16,051 nt of DNA from a virus (Duplodnaviria; Heunggongvirae; Uroviricota; Caudoviricetes), in the IMG/VR virus record IMGVR_UViG_2563366861_000001, positions 1 through 16,051 of that record, one strand, 5' to 3'. A program made the position numbers and the translations under genes. Within the stretch, counting starts at the first letter, position 1. Each line of letters starts with the position of its first letter. Below, piece by piece: positions 1-16,051 of this stretch. Under the pieces are notes generated by a model. That model searched no databases. It worked only from the letters and a program-made list of their open reading frames with translations, and was not told where the DNA came from.

Positions 1-187
1 GGGAAAGCTGCACGTAATCAGCAAGCGATATACGCAGCGAATTGAGCGGCATAACCTGAATCTGAGGCAGCACCTGGCACGGCTGGGACGGAAGTCGCTG
101 TCGTTCTCAAAATCGGTGGAGCTGCATGACAAAGTCATCGGGCATTATCTGAACATAAAACACTATCAATAAGTTGGAGTCATTACC
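1..187 (+). mobile_element. IS1: IS1 insertion sequence, 3' portion (window starts inside the element); ends with the IS1 terminal inverted repeat ...CACTATCAATAAGTTGGAGTCATTACC at 161-187
   Basis: Bases 1-187 are the exact reverse complement of 15588-15774; encodes the InsB C-terminus and ends in the canonical IS1 terminal repeat (recognised from memory of IS1). Confidence 0.93.
2..172 (+). CDS. insB: IS1 transposase InsB, C-terminal fragment (5' end outside window)
   Basis: Translation of 2-172 gives [56 protein letters not shown] then TAA at 170-172, the same C-terminus as the 15603-15980 ORF on the minus strand. Confidence 0.9.
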
Positions 188-3730: not shown

Positions 3731-3850
3731 AAGCCTGCTTTTTTATACTAAGTTGGCATTATAAAAAAGCATTGCTTATCAATTTGTTGCAACGAACAGG
3801 TCACTATCAGTCAAAATAAAATCATTATTTGATTTCAATTTTGTCCCACT
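3731..3850. other. attL: attL of a lambda-type prophage: core GCTTTTTTATACTAA at 3737-3751 followed by the phage P' arm (IHF H' site region and Int arm-type sites P'1-P'3, e.g. AGGTCACTAT, CAGTCAAAAT, AAATCATTAT)
   Basis: Exact lambda att core and P' arm sequence (TTATACTAAGTTGGCATTATAAAAAAGCATTGCTTATCAATTTGTTGCAACGAACAGGTCACTATCAGTCAAAATAAAATCATTATTTGATTTCAATTTTGTCCCACTCC); bacterial arm on the ybhC side, phage arm running into int. Confidence 0.93.
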
Positions 3851-4895
3851 CCCTGCCTCTGTCATCACGATACTGTGATGCCATGGTGTCCGACTTATGC
3901 CCGAGAAGATGTTGAGCAAATTTATCGCTTATCTGCTTCTCATAGAGTCTTGCAGACAAACTGCGCAACTCGTGAAAGGTTGGCGGATCCCCTTCGAAGG
4001 AGAGACCTGATGCTTTTCGTGCGCGCATAAAATACCTTGATACTGTGCCGGATGAAAGCGGTTCACGACGAGTAGATGCAATTATGGTTTCTCCGCCAAG
4101 AATCTTTTTGCATTTATCAAGTGTTTCCTTCATTGATATCCCGAGAGCATCAACATGCAATGTTGTTGGGATGGCAATTTTTACGCCTGTTTTGCTTTGC
4201 TCGACATAAAGATATCCATCTACGATATCAGACCACTTCATTTCGCATAAATCACCAACTCGCTGCCCGGTAACAACAGCCAGTTCCATTGCAAGTCTAA
4301 GCCAACATGGTGATGATTCTGCTGCTTGATAAATTTTCAGGTATTCGTCAGCCGTAAGTCTTGATCTCCTTACCTCTGATTTTGCAGCGCGAGTGGCTGC
4401 GACCGGGTTTGTTGTTATATGGCCTTCAGCCATAGCCTCTCGGAATGCATCGCTCAGTGTTGATCTGATTAACTTGGCTGATGCCGCCTTTCCCTCGTCT
4501 ATGTATCCATTGAGCATTGCCGCAATTTCTTTTGTGGTGATGTCTTCAAGTGGAGCATCAGGCAGACCCCTCCTTATTGCTTTAATTTTGCTCATGTAAT
4601 TTATGAGTGTCTTCTGCTTGATTCCTCTGCTGGCCAGGATTTTTTCGTAGCGATCAAGCCATGAATGTAACGTAACGGAATTATCACTGTTGATTCTCGC
4701 TGTCAGAGGCTTGTGTTTGTGTCCTGAAAATAACTCAATGTTGGCCTGTATAGCTTCAGTGATTGCGATTCGCCTGTCTCGGCCTAATCCAAACTCTTTA
4801 CCCGTCCTTGGGTCCCTGTAGCAGTAATATCCATTGTTTCTTATATAAAGGTTAGGGGGTAAATCCCGGCGCTCATGACTTCGCCTTCTTCCCAT
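3825..4895 (-). CDS. int: Lambda-type integrase (tyrosine recombinase Int), apparently full length
   Basis: 356-aa ORF, near-identical to remembered phage lambda Int (MGRRRSHERRDLPPNLYIRNNGYYCYRDPRTGKEFGLGRDRR...REWDKIEIK); 3' end overlaps the P' arm as in lambda. Confidence 0.97.
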   Translation of the reverse strand: MGRRRSHERRDLPPNLYIRNNGYYCYRDPRTGKEFGLGRDRRIAITEAIQANIELFSGHKHKPLTARINSDNSVTLHSWLDRYEKILASRGIKQKTLINYMSKIKAIRRGLPDAPLEDITTKEIAAMLNGYIDEGKAASAKLIRSTLSDAFREAMAEGHITTNPVAATRAAKSEVRRSRLTADEYLKIYQAAESSPCWLRLAMELAVVTGQRVGDLCEMKWSDIVDGYLYVEQSKTGVKIAIPTTLHVDALGISMKETLDKCKKILGGETIIASTRREPLSSGTVSRYFMRARKASGLSFEGDPPTFHELRSLSARLYEKQISDKFAQHLLGHKSDTMASQYRDDRGREWDKIEIK

Positions 4896-5091
4896 TTCTG
4901 ATCCTCTTCAAAAGGCTACCTGTTACTGGTCGATTTAAGTCAACCTTTACCGCTGATTCGTGGAACAGATATTCTCTTCCATCCTTAACCGGAGGAGGGA
5001 ATATCCTGCATTCGCGCACCCATCGACGAACTGTTTCAAGGCTTCTTGGGCGTCGCTGGCGAGCGTTCCACTCCTGAAGTGTCAAGTACAT
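4873..5091 (-). CDS. xis: Lambda-type excisionase Xis; overlaps the int start as in lambda
   Basis: 72-aa ORF MYLTLQEWNARQRRPRSLETVRRWVRECRIFPPPVKDGREYLFHESAVKVDLNRPVTGSLLKRIRNGKKAKS matching remembered lambda Xis. Confidence 0.95.
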   Translation of the reverse strand: MYLTLQEWNARQRRPRSLETVRRWVRECRIFPPPVKDGREYLFHESAVKVDLNRPVTGSLLKRIRNGKKAKS

Positions 5092-5380: not shown

Positions 5381-5809
5381 TTATTCAATATCTATTCCTG
5401 TAATATCTTTTATCTTTTTCCTTGCAAAGCCTTTTGCTAGTGATTTTGAAACACTTATTAGTGTACTAATTCCCTCATCCTTAAAGTTTGTTTTTATAGT
5501 TTGCCAGACCTCCTTTTGACGCAAGTCAGCAATAAAATCATGCCCTCTTGCTGTCAACCTCAGTGGTACTTCGATCCAACTATATCCAACACCTTCCCCT
5601 AACTCGTTGGACATTATATGACCGAACCCAGGTTTTCCATCAACCCTGACTATTAATTCGTAGTCGCATAATAATCGCATATGGAAAATAAAATTTTGGT
5701 CATATCTATTAAAGCCATTATCCTCTAGTTCACTAAGCATCGTGTCAGGGCCATGAGTTTTTTCGAATGCGATAAGTAGATCTTTTAGATATTGCTGGTC
5801 TAATTTCAT
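5381..5809 (-). CDS. Hypothetical 142-aa protein (moron gene in the int-xis-proximal accessory hotspot); function unknown
   Basis: ATG-initiated ORF with a GGAGG Shine-Dalgarno 6 nt upstream, its own downstream terminator, and AT-rich composition distinct from the flanking lambda-type genes; no family recognised. Confidence 0.65.
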   Translation of the reverse strand: MKLDQQYLKDLLIAFEKTHGPDTMLSELEDNGFNRYDQNFIFHMRLLCDYELIVRVDGKPGFGHIMSNELGEGVGYSWIEVPLRLTARGHDFIADLRQKEVWQTIKTNFKDEGISTLISVSKSLAKGFARKKIKDITGIDIE

Positions 5810-6056
5810 TGCCGCCTCCGTGACATGTCACAGAGATTTATATCATTAATTTTGTTTCGTGCCAGCCTTTGGTCACCCAGCATTGTGAGTCACCATTACA
5901 CGGGCATGAATTAACAGGAACTCTCTCGCCGCACTTACCGCAACGTTTTCTGCTGATCGATTTTATACGCCAGCGCACACGTGCATCATCCTGGCGGCTC
6001 AGTAACGCGATGTACTCACCAAACTCGTAAGGCGCATGCCTGAAGCGGCGCGTGGC

Positions 6057-6176
6057 TCAGTTACGATCCAGCATTTCAATTTCCTGAGCATCAAGTACAA
6101 GCTCCAGCTTACGCATACCGGATGATGCTTGCTTGGCTCTCTGATCGACTTTGCGCTCTGCTGATGATTTAGCCAT
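6057..6176 (-). CDS. Hypothetical 39-aa protein (MAKSSAERKVDQRAKQASSGMRKLELVLDAQEIEMLDRN); same frame continues after a single TGA into a 72-codon zinc-ribbon-like segment (5838-6056)
   Basis: ATG at 6174-6176 preceded by an AGGA Shine-Dalgarno; stop TGA at 6057-6059; the downstream frame (…RKRCGKCGERVPVNSCPCNGDSQCW…) stays open to TAA at 5838-5840 with no ATG of its own. Confidence 0.35.
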   Translation of the reverse strand: MAKSSAERKVDQRAKQASSGMRKLELVLDAQEIEMLDRN

Positions 6177-6370
6177 TCTGCTTTTCCTGCATTAGGAGAA
6201 AGACAATCATGGCGGCGCGGATACTTCCGGTATCTTTTTACTCGATATTACCCTTCAATGGCACATACAAGAAGAGAGCCATCAACAGGAGTGAGTGAGG
6301 AATCGACAACCAGCAACGCTTAATTATCTATAGTGTCGTATTTGCTTCATAAAATATGGCGAATAACACA

Positions 6371-6404
6371 AAGCCCGCAGCAGCTCATTGTGCGGGCTTT
6401 TCTT
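6371..6404. terminator. Candidate bidirectional intrinsic terminator between convergent transcription units (9-bp stem AAGCCCGCA / TGCGGGCTT, T-run on the plus side)
   Basis: Perfect inverted repeat at 6371-6379 / 6391-6399 followed by TTTCTT; lies about 70 nt past the stop of the 204-aa minus-strand gene. Confidence 0.5.
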
Positions 6405-6469: not shown

Positions 6470-7084
6470 TTATCTAAAAGTCTTTCCACTTTTAACGTCT
6501 AGGTATATTCTGTTCGACAACGTCATTCCTCCGCAATATGTGAAATAGATGTTTTTCCCCTTATTGCTTGATGCCATCCACCCTCCGATTTCCTTAAAGT
6601 CGCTTTCCGTGCAGACCCCTTCGTTTATTAACTTCCTAGCTGCCGAAGAAAACTCTTTTTTGTATATACGGTAGTCATCAGATCCTTTGATTAAAGTATC
6701 ATCTCCGCTCGCATTTTCAGCAGGATCTGATGGCCTTTCACTGCTAAGATCACTAAGTTTAACCCATTCTGAAAACTTGCCATTGACGATTCCGTTTTTT
6801 CTTGTGCAGGATTTATTACCTTCTTTAATATATTCGCTTTCCCCTCCCACACATGAGGCTGAATATGGCTCAGTTATACGAACCCATTCACCTTTTTTTT
6901 CTAGAAAATCTACGCCTTCCCTGAAAAATAGTTTCCCAGCCACTCCACATTTACTTGAAGGGCAGGTATGTCTTTCCGTTCGATCAACAACAACCCAAAG
7001 TCTTGATTCATTTTTTGCCATTGCCGATGGTATTTGAGATGAGACAATTAACGTAAGCCCTAAAATTAGTATTGATTTTTTCAT
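6470..7084 (-). CDS. Hypothetical secreted, cysteine-rich 204-aa protein (moron); function unknown
   Basis: ATG start with an AAGGA Shine-Dalgarno; N-terminus MKKSILILGLTLIVSSQIPSAMA is a typical Sec signal peptide; 7 Cys in the mature part; low GC; terminator downstream. Confidence 0.65.
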   Translation of the reverse strand: MKKSILILGLTLIVSSQIPSAMAKNESRLWVVVDRTERHTCPSSKCGVAGKLFFREGVDFLEKKGEWVRITEPYSASCVGGESEYIKEGNKSCTRKNGIVNGKFSEWVKLSDLSSERPSDPAENASGDDTLIKGSDDYRIYKKEFSSAARKLINEGVCTESDFKEIGGWMASSNKGKNIYFTYCGGMTLSNRIYLDVKSGKTFR

Positions 7085-7530: not shown

Positions 7531-7563
7531 GATGGTACGCTGCAGGATAATGTCCGGTGTCAT
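7531..7563 (-). pseudogene. exo: Remnant of lambda exo (first 10 codons MTPDIILQRT only), then unrelated sequence
   Basis: ATG overlaps the bet stop (ATGA) exactly as in lambda; reading diverges from remembered lambda Exo after codon 10 and hits a stop 8 codons later. Confidence 0.6.
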
Positions 7564-8009
7564 GCTGCCACCTTCTGCTCAGTGGCTTTCTGTTTCAGGA
7601 ATCCAAGAGCTTTCACTGCTTCGGCCTGTGTCAGTTCTGACGATGCGCGAATGTCGCGGCGAAATATCTGGGAACAGAGCGGCAATAAGTCGTCATCCCA
7701 TGTTTTGTCCAGGGCAATCAGCAGAGTGTTAATCTCCTGCATGGTTTCATCGTTAACCGGAGTAATGTCGCGTTCCGGCTGACGTTCTGCGGTGTATGCG
7801 GTATTTTCGACAATGCGCTCGGCTTCATCCTTGTCATAGATACCAGCAAATCCGAAGGCCAGACGGGCACACTGAATCATGGCTTTATGCCGTAACATCC
7901 GTTTGGGATGCGACTGCCACGGCCCCGTAATTTCTCTGCCTTCGCGGGTTTTGAATGGTTCGCGGCGGCATTCATCCATCCACTCGGTAACGCAGATCGG
8001 ATGATTACC
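7560..8009 (-). pseudogene. bet: Remnant of lambda bet (Red-beta): C-terminal ~150 codons only, 5' portion deleted
   Basis: Translation NHPICVTEWMDECRREPFKTREGREITGPWQSHPKRMLRHKAMIQCARLAFGFAGIYDKDEAERIVENTAYTAERQPERDITPVNDETMQEINTLLIALDKTWDDDLLPLCSQIFRRDIRASSELTQAEAVKALGFLKQKATEQKVAA matches the remembered C-terminus of lambda Bet; homology stops near 8009. Confidence 0.88.
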
Positions 8010-8165
8010 GGTTCGCTACCAGGGAAGAACGGGAAGGAAAGGTGAGCACGAATCTGATTTTCAAGGAGTGTCGCCAGAGTGCCGCGATGAAGCGGGTGTT
8101 GGCATTTTATCGCGGCAATTTTCAATAGACTATGTACATAAAAATATCATTTTTTTAATACATGT

Positions 8166-8613: not shown

Positions 8614-9174
8614 ATGAAGAAGATAATATTATTAGCCATGATTATTGGTTCTTTAACAGGTTGCGCTAGTGTGCCACCATTGAATTTTTCAACACCTAAC
8701 GTGGGAGTTAGCCAGAAAAAAATAGATGCTGAAATTAAGTCATTAACGGTATCACTTGCTCGTCCAGATGAGCAGAAAGGGGATATCACTGCTGGTATGG
8801 AGGCTATAACTCCAATTTGGCGTGAATCTTTGCAGGAAGCACTCGACCGAATGACTATTTTTCGTGATAGTTCACCAAATACGGTTAGCTTAAATGTTAA
8901 AGTGTTGGCTCTTGACGTTCCTGCTTTTGGTGTTTCAATGACAACTAAAGCAATTGCAAGGTATGAAATAATCAACCGTGCGAATGGTGATATTATATAT
9001 ACGCAGGATATTGAGTCTACCGGTACTGTTCCAGCCAGTTACGCATTCTACGGTATTGTTCGAGCACGCGAATCTGTTAATCGCGCGGTGCAAAACAACA
9101 TAACGCAGTTCTTGCAAGCATTAGAAAGTGTTGATCTTTCTCGTCCAATGTTTCCTGTTAGGGTAGCTAAATGA
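8614..9174 (+). CDS. Putative lipoprotein, 186 aa (signal peptide plus lipobox LTGC); possibly YajG-like, function unknown
   Basis: MKKIILLAMIIGSLTGCAS… lipoprotein signal; ATG with upstream AAGG; stop overlaps the next gene's start (ATGA); low GC. Confidence 0.7.
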   Translation: MKKIILLAMIIGSLTGCASVPPLNFSTPNVGVSQKKIDAEIKSLTVSLARPDEQKGDITAGMEAITPIWRESLQEALDRMTIFRDSSPNTVSLNVKVLALDVPAFGVSMTTKAIARYEIINRANGDIIYTQDIESTGTVPASYAFYGIVRARESVNRAVQNNITQFLQALESVDLSRPMFPVRVAK

Positions 9175-11875: not shown

Positions 11876-12958
11876 TTAGAACTGGTAAACCATACCTACA
11901 GCAACGATATCATCGGTAGCAACGCCAGATGCTTTCGTGAAATCGCTCTTATCAATCAGGTTGATTTTGTAATCAACAAAAGTGGACATATTTTTGTTGA
12001 AGTAATAGGTTGCACCTACATCAATATATTCAACCAGGTCCTGATCACCCCACGCACCCAAGTCTTTTCCTTTAGATTGCAGGTAAGCAACGGACGGACG
12101 CAGACCGAAGTCGAACTGATATTGTGCAACTACTTCGAAGTTTTGTGCTTTGTTGGCAATATGGTTATTACCAAAAACAGTCATGTTCTGGGTTTCAGAA
12201 TAGGTGGTAGCCAGATAGATGTTGTTCGCATCATATTTCAGACCAGCTGCCCATACTTCAGCATTTTGACCAGATGCATTCAGGCTGTTGTTACCGTAGA
12301 TAACCTGATTATTAGTGCGGTCAGATTTAGCATAGGTTGCACCTACACCGAATCCTTCATACTCATAAGTAGTGGAGAAACCGAAACCATCACCATTAGC
12401 TTCAGTTACGTCAGTGCGGTCATTTTTACCCTGATACTGAGCAGCAAAGTTCAGACCATCAACCAGACCAAAGAAGTCATTGTTACGATAAGTTGCAACA
12501 CCTGTGGTGCGACCAGTCATGAATACATCTGTTTGGGTCCAGGTATCGCCACCGAATTCTGGCAGAACGTCGGTCCATGCACCAATATCGTATGCTACAC
12601 CGTAGTTACGGCCATAATCGATGGAGCCGTAGTCACCGAATTTCAGGCCAGCGAAGGCAAGACGGGTTTTATCTTTGGAGGAACCTTGAGATTCAGCGCG
12701 GTTGCCTTTGAATTCATATTCCCACTGACCGAAACCAGTCAGTTGATCGTTGATTTGGGTTTCACCTTTGAAGCCAAGACGGGCATAAGTAGTATCACCA
12801 TCATCTGCATCATTAGAGGAGAAGTAGTGCTTAGCATTAACTTTCCCGTACAGATCCAGCTTGTTACTGTCTTTATTATAAATTTCAGCTGCCTGAGCAG
12901 ACATCGCCATCAGTACTGATGCAGCTACAGCAGAAATTGCCACTGTTAATTTTTTCAT
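11876..12958 (-). CDS. nmpC: Phage-borne OmpC-family general porin (NmpC/Lc type), 360-aa precursor, apparently full length; start taken at [11 protein letters not shown]…
   Basis: Signal peptide [23 protein letters not shown], mature N-terminus [17 protein letters not shown]…, C-terminal …VAVGMVYQF with terminal Phe typical of porins; located between Q and the holin as in DLP12 and PA-2. Confidence 0.9.
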
Positions 12959-15587: not shown

Positions 15588-16051
15588 GGTAATGACTCCA
15601 ACTTATTGATAGTGTTTTATGTTCAGATAATGCCCGATGACTTTGTCATGCAGCTCCACCGATTTTGAGAACGACAGCGACTTCCGTCCCAGCCGTGCCA
15701 GGTGCTGCCTCAGATTCAGGTTATGCCGCTCAATTCGCTGCGTATATCGCTTGCTGATTACGTGCAGCTTTCCCTTCAGGCGGGATTCATACAGCGGCCA
15801 GCCATCCGTCATCCATATCACCACGTCAAAGGGTGACAGCAGGCTCATAAGACGCCCCAGCGTCGCCATAGTGCGTTCACCGAATACGTGCGCAACAACC
15901 GTCTTCCGGAGCCTGTCATACGCGTAAAACAGCCAGCGCTGGCGCGATTTAGCCCCGACGTATCCCCACTGTTCGTCCATTTCCGCGCAGACGATGACGT
16001 CACTGCCCGGCTGTATGCGCGAGGTTACCGACTGCGGCCTGAGTTTTTTAA
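15588..16051 (-). mobile_element. IS1: IS1 insertion sequence, partial (runs off the window end), inverted relative to the IS1 at 1-187
   Basis: Begins with the IS1 terminal repeat GGTAATGACTCCAACTTATTGATAGTG at 15588; 15588-15774 is the exact reverse complement of 1-187. Confidence 0.95.
15603..16049 (-). CDS. insB: IS1 transposase InsB reading frame (5' end outside window)
   Basis: …[68 protein letters not shown]…HYLNIKHYQ, recognised as IS1 InsB. Confidence 0.92.

Follow-up and report, generated by a model that had tools for sequence, protein, structure and literature searches.

The window, i.e., the whole stretch of 16,051 nucleotides that was analysed, holds a defective DLP12-like lambdoid prophage integrated at att-lambda, beside ybhC, and ends on both sides in IS1 (Table 1). 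Relative to collinear strains, one of these IS1 copies interrupts ybhJ and the other the ybcV region of the prophage. In the early-left part of the element, a frame of 112 codons on the minus strand is interrupted at codon 40 by one in-frame TGA. The sequence-only reading of this DNA had placed the frame and its single TGA at exactly the positions given in the table.

Table 1. Features of the window at and around the interrupted frame, in window coordinates.
Feature	Position	Strand	Remark
IS1	1-187		Left end of the window
int	3825-4895		Prophage gene
xis	4873-5091		Prophage gene
55-aa ORF			Between xis and DUF2513 in the gene listing
DUF2513 gene	5381-5809		Next gene after the pseudogene
Perfect palindrome GTGACATGTCAC	5820-5831		6 nt 3' of the TAA; directly adjoins the GGAGG ribosome-binding site of DUF2513
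Whole 112-codon pseudogene, including TAA	5838-6176	-	Nonsense allele of the PHROG 536 / epsilon15 gp49 / phiV10 p55 family
Stop codon TAA	5840-5838	-	End of the pseudogene
72 codons 3' of the in-frame stop	5841-6056	-	Frame open; remainder of the conserved family sequence, with the Cys cluster
In-frame GTG	5976-5978	-	Val67 of the intact protein; sole candidate restart codon
In-frame TGA, codon 40	6057-6059	-	TGT (Cys) to TGA, one third-position transversion
39 N-terminal sense codons	6060-6176	-	Translation MAKSSAERKVDQRAKQASSGMRKLELVLDAQEIEMLDRN
Start codon ATG	6176-6174	-	Start of the pseudogene
Shine-Dalgarno-like AGGA	6185-6188	-	8 nt 5' of the ATG; read from the sequence
umuD-like / S24 peptidase fragment	6251-6319	-	Just upstream of the pseudogene; marks a recombination scar
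Terminator-like GC hairpin GCCCGCA...TGCGGGC with T-rich tail	6362-6397	-	Between the 204-aa gene and the pseudogene
204-aa secreted-protein ORF	6470-7084	-	Clear signal peptide MKKSILILGLTLIVSSQIPSAMA
Ea22 fragment			Listed between the 204-aa gene and bet
Truncated bet	7560-8006		Fused to a ren fragment
Deletion junction	7560-8128		bet/recT abutting the ren fragment
YajG-family lipoprotein gene	8614-9174	+	Cargo gene
ompC-like porin gene	11876-12958	-	Cargo gene
nin-region genes, quuD, ompC-like porin, lysis genes, bor			Rest of the prophage
IS1	15588-16051		Right end of the window

The full translation of the window frame reads MAKSSAERKVDQRAKQASSGMRKLELVLDAQEIEMLDRN, the stop, and then ATRRFRHAPYEF...CGKCGERVPVNSCPCNGDSQCWVTKGWHETKLMI. 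The 72 downstream codons hold no in-frame ATG, and the GTG is their only canonical in-frame start, as the sequence-only reading had stated. A weak AGGA lies 10 nt 5' of this GTG, within conserved coding sequence (Q62-D63-D64). The downstream frame is open because of homology and not by chance: over the whole 339 nt the window copy shares 97% of its nucleotides with the intact gene of phage Chlobot and 89% with phiV10 p55 and TL-2011b gp20. While C40 is replaced by the stop, the C-terminal set of Cys and His residues (C79, C82, C91, C93, C99, H106) is intact. This segment had been described as a zinc ribbon, a reasonable name for a C-terminus so rich in cysteines, although neither a structure nor a domain model bears it out.

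The frame belongs to a conserved family of 112-residue phage proteins, PHROG 536, which includes epsilon15 gp49, phiV10 p55, and TL-2011b gp20, each of them an uninterrupted CDS of 339 nt. An intact, near-identical allele, to which the window copy is 97% identical in nucleotides, matches the phrog_536 profile over residues 1-111 (E = 7e-48). The database labels this profile 'transcriptional regulator', a putative function that comes from annotation only. A protein search recovered 394 clusters from Escherichia, Salmonella, Citrobacter, Klebsiella, Raoultella, Edwardsiella, and other genera. Among the 120 cluster representatives listed, the length is exactly 112 residues in 103 and Cys40 is present in all 120; near-invariant residues include R47 (119 of the 120; the window copy has His here), R66 (117), G80 (116), and C99 (118). 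Full-length, single-piece matches were found in 46 phage records, and codon 40 is a stop in none of them. Cys is encoded here in every phage record inspected, the closest intact relatives read TGT, and the alignment to the phage homologues sets TGT opposite the TGA of the window. Hence, the comparison with homologues that the sequence-only reading had proposed as a check bore out an interrupted gene: the homologues are single ORFs of 112 codons with TGT or TGC (Cys) at this position. More distant homologues have Arg (Rosenbergiella, Erwinia) or Met (Yersinia) at position 40, and both C40 and C93 are variable among distant members of the family. Judged from these alignments, Cys40 is invariant among the listed relatives of at least about 65% identity, yet it is not universally required.

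In several respects the window frame resembles epsilon15 gp49, phiV10 p55, and TL-2011b gp20: it has the same 112 codons, its translation is 70-87% identical to theirs in amino acids, and it shares their Cys cluster and the palindrome GTGACATGTCAC at the 3' end of the gene. It differs from them by the TGA in place of Cys40 and by R47H. It also differs in location, since it occupies the early-left (b-region) arm of a lambda-like prophage, beside xis and int, whereas in the Uetakevirus phages the gene is the last early gene 5' of terS. The closest intact loci are those of phage Chlobot and of IMG/VR contig 2917891409_000001 (L026), with 97-98% nucleotide identity to the window gene and with the same neighbourhood (umuD-like fragment, regulator gene, DUF2513, 55-aa ORF, xis, and int). 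They differ from the window by TGT at codon 40, by Arg47, and by being complete lambda-like phages. Chlobot, which was isolated lytically and is 97% identical across the region, encodes the intact ORF with Cys40. Its annotated 'UmuD-like protein' (positions 2485-2802 of locus L004) was considered and set aside: it is a short real UmuD fragment that runs out of frame over the regulator gene. Because of this out-of-frame ORF, the 112-aa ORF of Chlobot was missed and a 46-aa ORF starting at GTG was annotated instead. The window copy, with its TGA at codon 40, lacks the uninterrupted ORF of about 112 codons of PHROG 536; it is a pseudogene of this family and not a functional member. Its 39-aa product matches phrog_34005, a family of 40 positions made solely of the N-terminal piece. 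Separately, a distant homologue in Xenorhabdus indica DSM 17382 (L112, around positions 1621-1626) has an independent in-frame TAA at codon 41, along with small deletions.

The pseudogene status of the locus is already known: NCBI PGAP lists these 339 nt among the pseudogenes, with the note 'hypothetical protein; internal stop', in ATCC 8739, O68:H12 97.3, SZQ1, 1409, PSS-13, and 23CRST021. Strains such as 23CRST021 match the window collinearly between its positions 2290 and 15587, with 99.99% identity. A correspondence with the ATCC 8739 locus throughout was ruled out beyond about 5 kb, where strains of the 23CRST021 type are collinear instead. According to the annotation of the collinear genome, the prophage lacks pL, N, cI, cro, O, and P. 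All of these, together with the exo-proximal genes, are taken by the deletion at the bet-ren junction, where a bet/recT gene that lacks its N-terminal part meets a ren fragment of opposite orientation. A promoter scan of the minus strand between the 204-aa gene and the pseudogene found nothing. The terminator-like hairpin in the same interval has only sub-threshold matches to terminator-type Rfam families, and the scan flags its opposite-strand version. With pL and the other elements lost, a terminator-like hairpin upstream, and no promoter found, the native transcription signals of the gene have therefore been lost. The 204-aa ORF has the look of a moron; it is without annotated function and is conserved in phage Chlobot as well as in every related att-lambda prophage. 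The annotation of the collinear genome also lists cargo genes, namely the ompC-like porin and the YajG-family lipoprotein. Decay of this kind is ordinary in the cryptic prophages of E. coli, such as DLP12, Rac, and Qin, and the window is like them in combining a point-mutated accessory gene, the loss of the immunity and replication region, and IS elements. Compared with the pseudogenes of cryptic prophages, the null allele of the window is unusual only in its commonness and in its apparent shuffling onto several flanks by recombination.

We traced the allele with queries of 55 nt that have the variant base at their centre, so that every 28-nt megablast seed contains this base. With megablast, the 601-bp neighbourhood of the codon matches 63 phage records and 1,067 of 5,426 complete E. 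coli genomes. The TGA 55-mer occurs in 63 of the same 5,426 genomes and in none of 50,697 phage records, and TGT with the window's own flanks occurs in none of the 5,426. The GAG-CGT-AAC-TGT haplotype is present in at least 353 complete E. coli genomes, of which about 80 are from the closely related clade. Within this clade, complete genomes carry the TGA in about 63 copies and an intact, closely related allele in about 80 (TGA roughly 40%). Among the best 80 IMG/VR loci, six have TGA and 74 have TGT or TGC at codon 40. A protein search with a 40-aa query recovered the cluster of the exact 39-aa product (P0121), which is found on 804 public contigs. An apparent revertant with Trp40 (P0125) proved to carry TGA, which the gene caller used on that sample had read under another genetic code.

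The TGA haplotypes share a second, synonymous mark. Codon 43 is CGC in all those examined (the window, L005, L006-8, L027-32, and L124-128), and this codon is absent from the closely related TGT haplotypes of the same clade that were examined. What the L026 locus encodes is identical to the intact ancestor inferred for the TGA haplotypes, and some of these haplotypes (L124-127) sit on Chlobot-type flanks. The simplest reading of these sequences is that the TGA is an allele of single origin that was then passed on by vertical descent and moved by recombination onto different flanks. The allele also occurs in prophages that look largely complete, and these more complete carriers show that the gene is dispensable for prophage maintenance. 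One TGA-bearing locus, L006, is a 43,337-bp circular 'plasmid' of E. coli SZQ1 (NZ_CP174001.1) that carries a lambda-like phage genome and, beside int, a fragment of a chromosomal diguanylate cyclase gene; this circle is possibly a prophage that excised aberrantly, or else an artefact of assembly.

Substitutions that followed the TGA provide information on selection after the stop. We counted 11 non-synonymous changes (A2T, A5S, A10V, E37D, R47H, A48S, Y50C, R66H, G80R, R85K, and C99Y) and 3 synonymous ones, where the neutral expectation for the gene is 3.6:1. The intact homologues have a median pairwise dN/dS of 0.08 (range 0.02-0.21), and Fisher's test of the TGA-lineage changes against an intact comparison gives p = 0.048 (14 substitutions in all). 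The changes strike near-invariant residues, R47H in the window and R66H, G80R, and C99Y in other TGA haplotypes. The intact sister clade is also rich in non-synonymous changes in its recent polymorphism (about 5 to 2 synonymous); R47H is present in two intact IMG/VR loci and G80R/C99Y in one intact recombinant cluster (P0011). Taken over only 14 substitutions, the pattern is one of seemingly relaxed constraint past the stop. Nearly all TGA haplotypes keep an open frame downstream.

The intact protein has no meaningful domain match in Pfam, and a PDB sequence search with it found no relative. In NCBIfam, residues 9-48 have a sub-threshold match to the LexA-regulated protein YbfE (E = 0.007; 16.8 bits for a cut-off of 62). 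The AlphaFold (AF2) model is poor (pLDDT 59), with helices at residues 5-19, 30-42, and 52-67. These data are compatible with a ribbon-helix-helix-like N-terminal half followed by a Cys-rich module, and the Cys-rich C-terminus is probably zinc-binding. If the model is right, the stop falls within the first helix of the putative DNA-binding half, the 39-aa product would be without the second helix, and a product restarted at the GTG would be without the whole N-terminal half. Neither fragment should fold like the native protein, and the 39-codon N-terminal piece is the only one expected to be made efficiently.

The sequence-only reading had left three options for the split frame, namely a nonsense-inactivated gene, two coupled genes with a GTG start, and programmed readthrough of the stop; comparison with the homologues upholds the first and speaks against the other two. 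It had also allowed for a sequencing error at the TGA. That the TGA was made by an error of sequencing or assembly is practically excluded, given that the identical allele is found in 63 complete genomes of independent projects, in several separate assemblies of ATCC 8739, and in six of the best 80 IMG/VR loci, and that the 39-aa product lies on 804 contigs. Readthrough, either programmed or usefully leaky, would insert Trp or near-cognate Cys at the UGA and give a low amount of full-length regulator from an attenuated allele. Of the stop codons, UGA is the one most prone to leak in E. coli, a Cys inserted there would give back the wild-type sequence, and both the frame kept open in nearly all TGA haplotypes and the frequency of the allele within its clade fit such a use. 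We nonetheless regard it as very unlikely. In programmed readthrough the stop is conserved across homologues, whereas here it is present in none of the 120 representatives and in none of the 50,697 phage records: it is a derived allele of single origin, absent from isolated phages, and no conserved feature. The A1 protein of phage Q-beta, a known case of programmed UGA readthrough in which stop and extension are conserved and required, likewise has an in-frame UGA followed by an open frame, but the stop of the window is a derived minority allele, with neutral change downstream and without a stimulatory signal. A stretch of 73 nt, from 3 nt ahead of the stop codon to 67 nt beyond it, does not fold better than its shuffled versions (z = +0.58), and on the sense strand Rfam yields no match at or 3' of the stop codon for E values up to 10. 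In the 45 nt after the stop, the TGA haplotypes differ from TGT alleles by one synonymous change (plus R47H in the window). Because the downstream sequence is essentially that of TGT alleles, no SECIS element or readthrough stimulator has co-evolved with the stop. Downstream substitutions are at the neutral ratio and reach near-invariant residues, and an open frame is expected anyway at a divergence of 3% or less. It is also very unlikely that the allele is attenuated instead of dead, with near-cognate decoding of the UGA (Trp/Cys) giving a trickle of full-length protein. If this were so, resident prophages would tolerate or favour the lower dose, and this would account for the share of about 40% among the copies of the clade and for the open frame that was kept. 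There is a small chance that a basal leak at the UGA, or the fragments themselves, retain some activity. The high frequency of TGA in the clade is compatible with neutrality or hitch-hiking, and also with some benefit or residual activity.

A UGA opposite a Cys of the homologues is the classic selenoprotein signature, and the TGA of the window is indeed aligned with an invariant Cys codon. The other marks of a selenoprotein are missing. There is no SECIS-like hairpin directly downstream, where the fold equals that of shuffles and Rfam has no match. The UGA is not conserved under purifying selection of what follows: it is a single recent allele with neutral constraint downstream. Finally, Cys40 is replaced by Arg or Met in distant homologues, unlike a redox-active residue. 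Selenocysteine is thus extremely improbable here. As for two functional genes, a 39-aa N-terminal peptide and a 46-aa zinc-ribbon protein starting at the GTG, the arrangement is suggested by the AGGA 10 nt 5' of this codon, by the PHROG family built on the N-terminal piece alone, by the 46-aa ORF that one pipeline annotated in Chlobot, and by the adjacent TAA of the Xenorhabdus indica homologue. The AGGA and the GTG encode invariant or near-invariant residues (Q62, D63, D64, and V67) and are explained by coding constraint; the full ORF of Chlobot is intact, so its 46-aa annotation is an artefact of the spurious overlapping ORF; and the Xenorhabdus stop beside codon 40 is probably a coincidence (about 3% by chance), with no other homologue examined being organised as two genes. 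Moreover, two genes would leave codons 41-66 untranslated although they are highly conserved in every intact homologue, C99Y and G80R accumulate in the supposed second gene, and the stop falls inside the predicted helix 30-42 of the low-confidence model and not at a domain boundary. We consider this arrangement highly improbable. What is found at the locus is instead what characterises a nonsense pseudogene, i.e., a stop that is derived relative to intact orthologues, a loss of constraint (on few substitutions), and a decaying element. The frame at 6176..5838 is, very probably, an ordinary nonsense pseudogene of a conserved phage gene in a decayed E. coli prophage.

In this pseudogene, a single TGT to TGA transversion made codon 40 an opal stop in place of Cys40, an event that apparently took place once, in a lineage of lambda-like phages integrating at att-lambda. 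Translation should stop after residue 39, within what the model predicts as the first helix of the putative DNA-binding half. Judged from its distribution, the allele was then passed on by vertical descent and through recombination between prophages; judged from the substitution pattern, the TGA-bearing copies have drifted neutrally. In the window, the gene is also without its native promoter, since the defective prophage has lost pL, N, cI, cro, O, and P.

The palindrome that follows the gene is shared by much of the intact family. We found GTGACATGTCAC at or just after the stop codon of the regulator gene in 15 of the 19 homologues, from various genera, with sequence past the stop. Its tight link to the 3' end of the gene extends over Escherichia, Salmonella, Citrobacter, Klebsiella, Pantoea, Rosenbergiella, and Xenorhabdus; the Yersinia homologues have GTGACGCGTCAC in its place. 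By chance, an exact 12-mer would be expected about 0.005 times per genome. The genome of epsilon15 (L132) holds exactly three perfect copies, at 2142, 19517, and 39612. That of phiV10 (L129) holds two, at 2262-2273 and 19493-19504, which are syntenic with the first two of epsilon15, and a third copy with one mismatch, GTGACATGTTAC, that spans the ends of the linear record. In both phages each copy sits at the 3' end of a transcription unit, close to an annotated terminator, and none coincides with the annotated repressor operators. Our literature search for GTGACATGTCAC found nothing beyond unrelated primer sequences. The recurrence of the palindrome beside the gene suggests that it may be the binding site, or operator, of this putative family of regulators.

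In itself, the finding at this locus is routine, and the locus should stay off lists of recoding candidates. It provides a worked example of a trap, in which a TGA opposite an invariant Cys mimics the signature of a selenoprotein and is here a plain transversion. The intact family is widespread in temperate phages of enterobacteria, and the linked GTGACATGTCAC, which may be its operator, gives a starting point for its characterisation.
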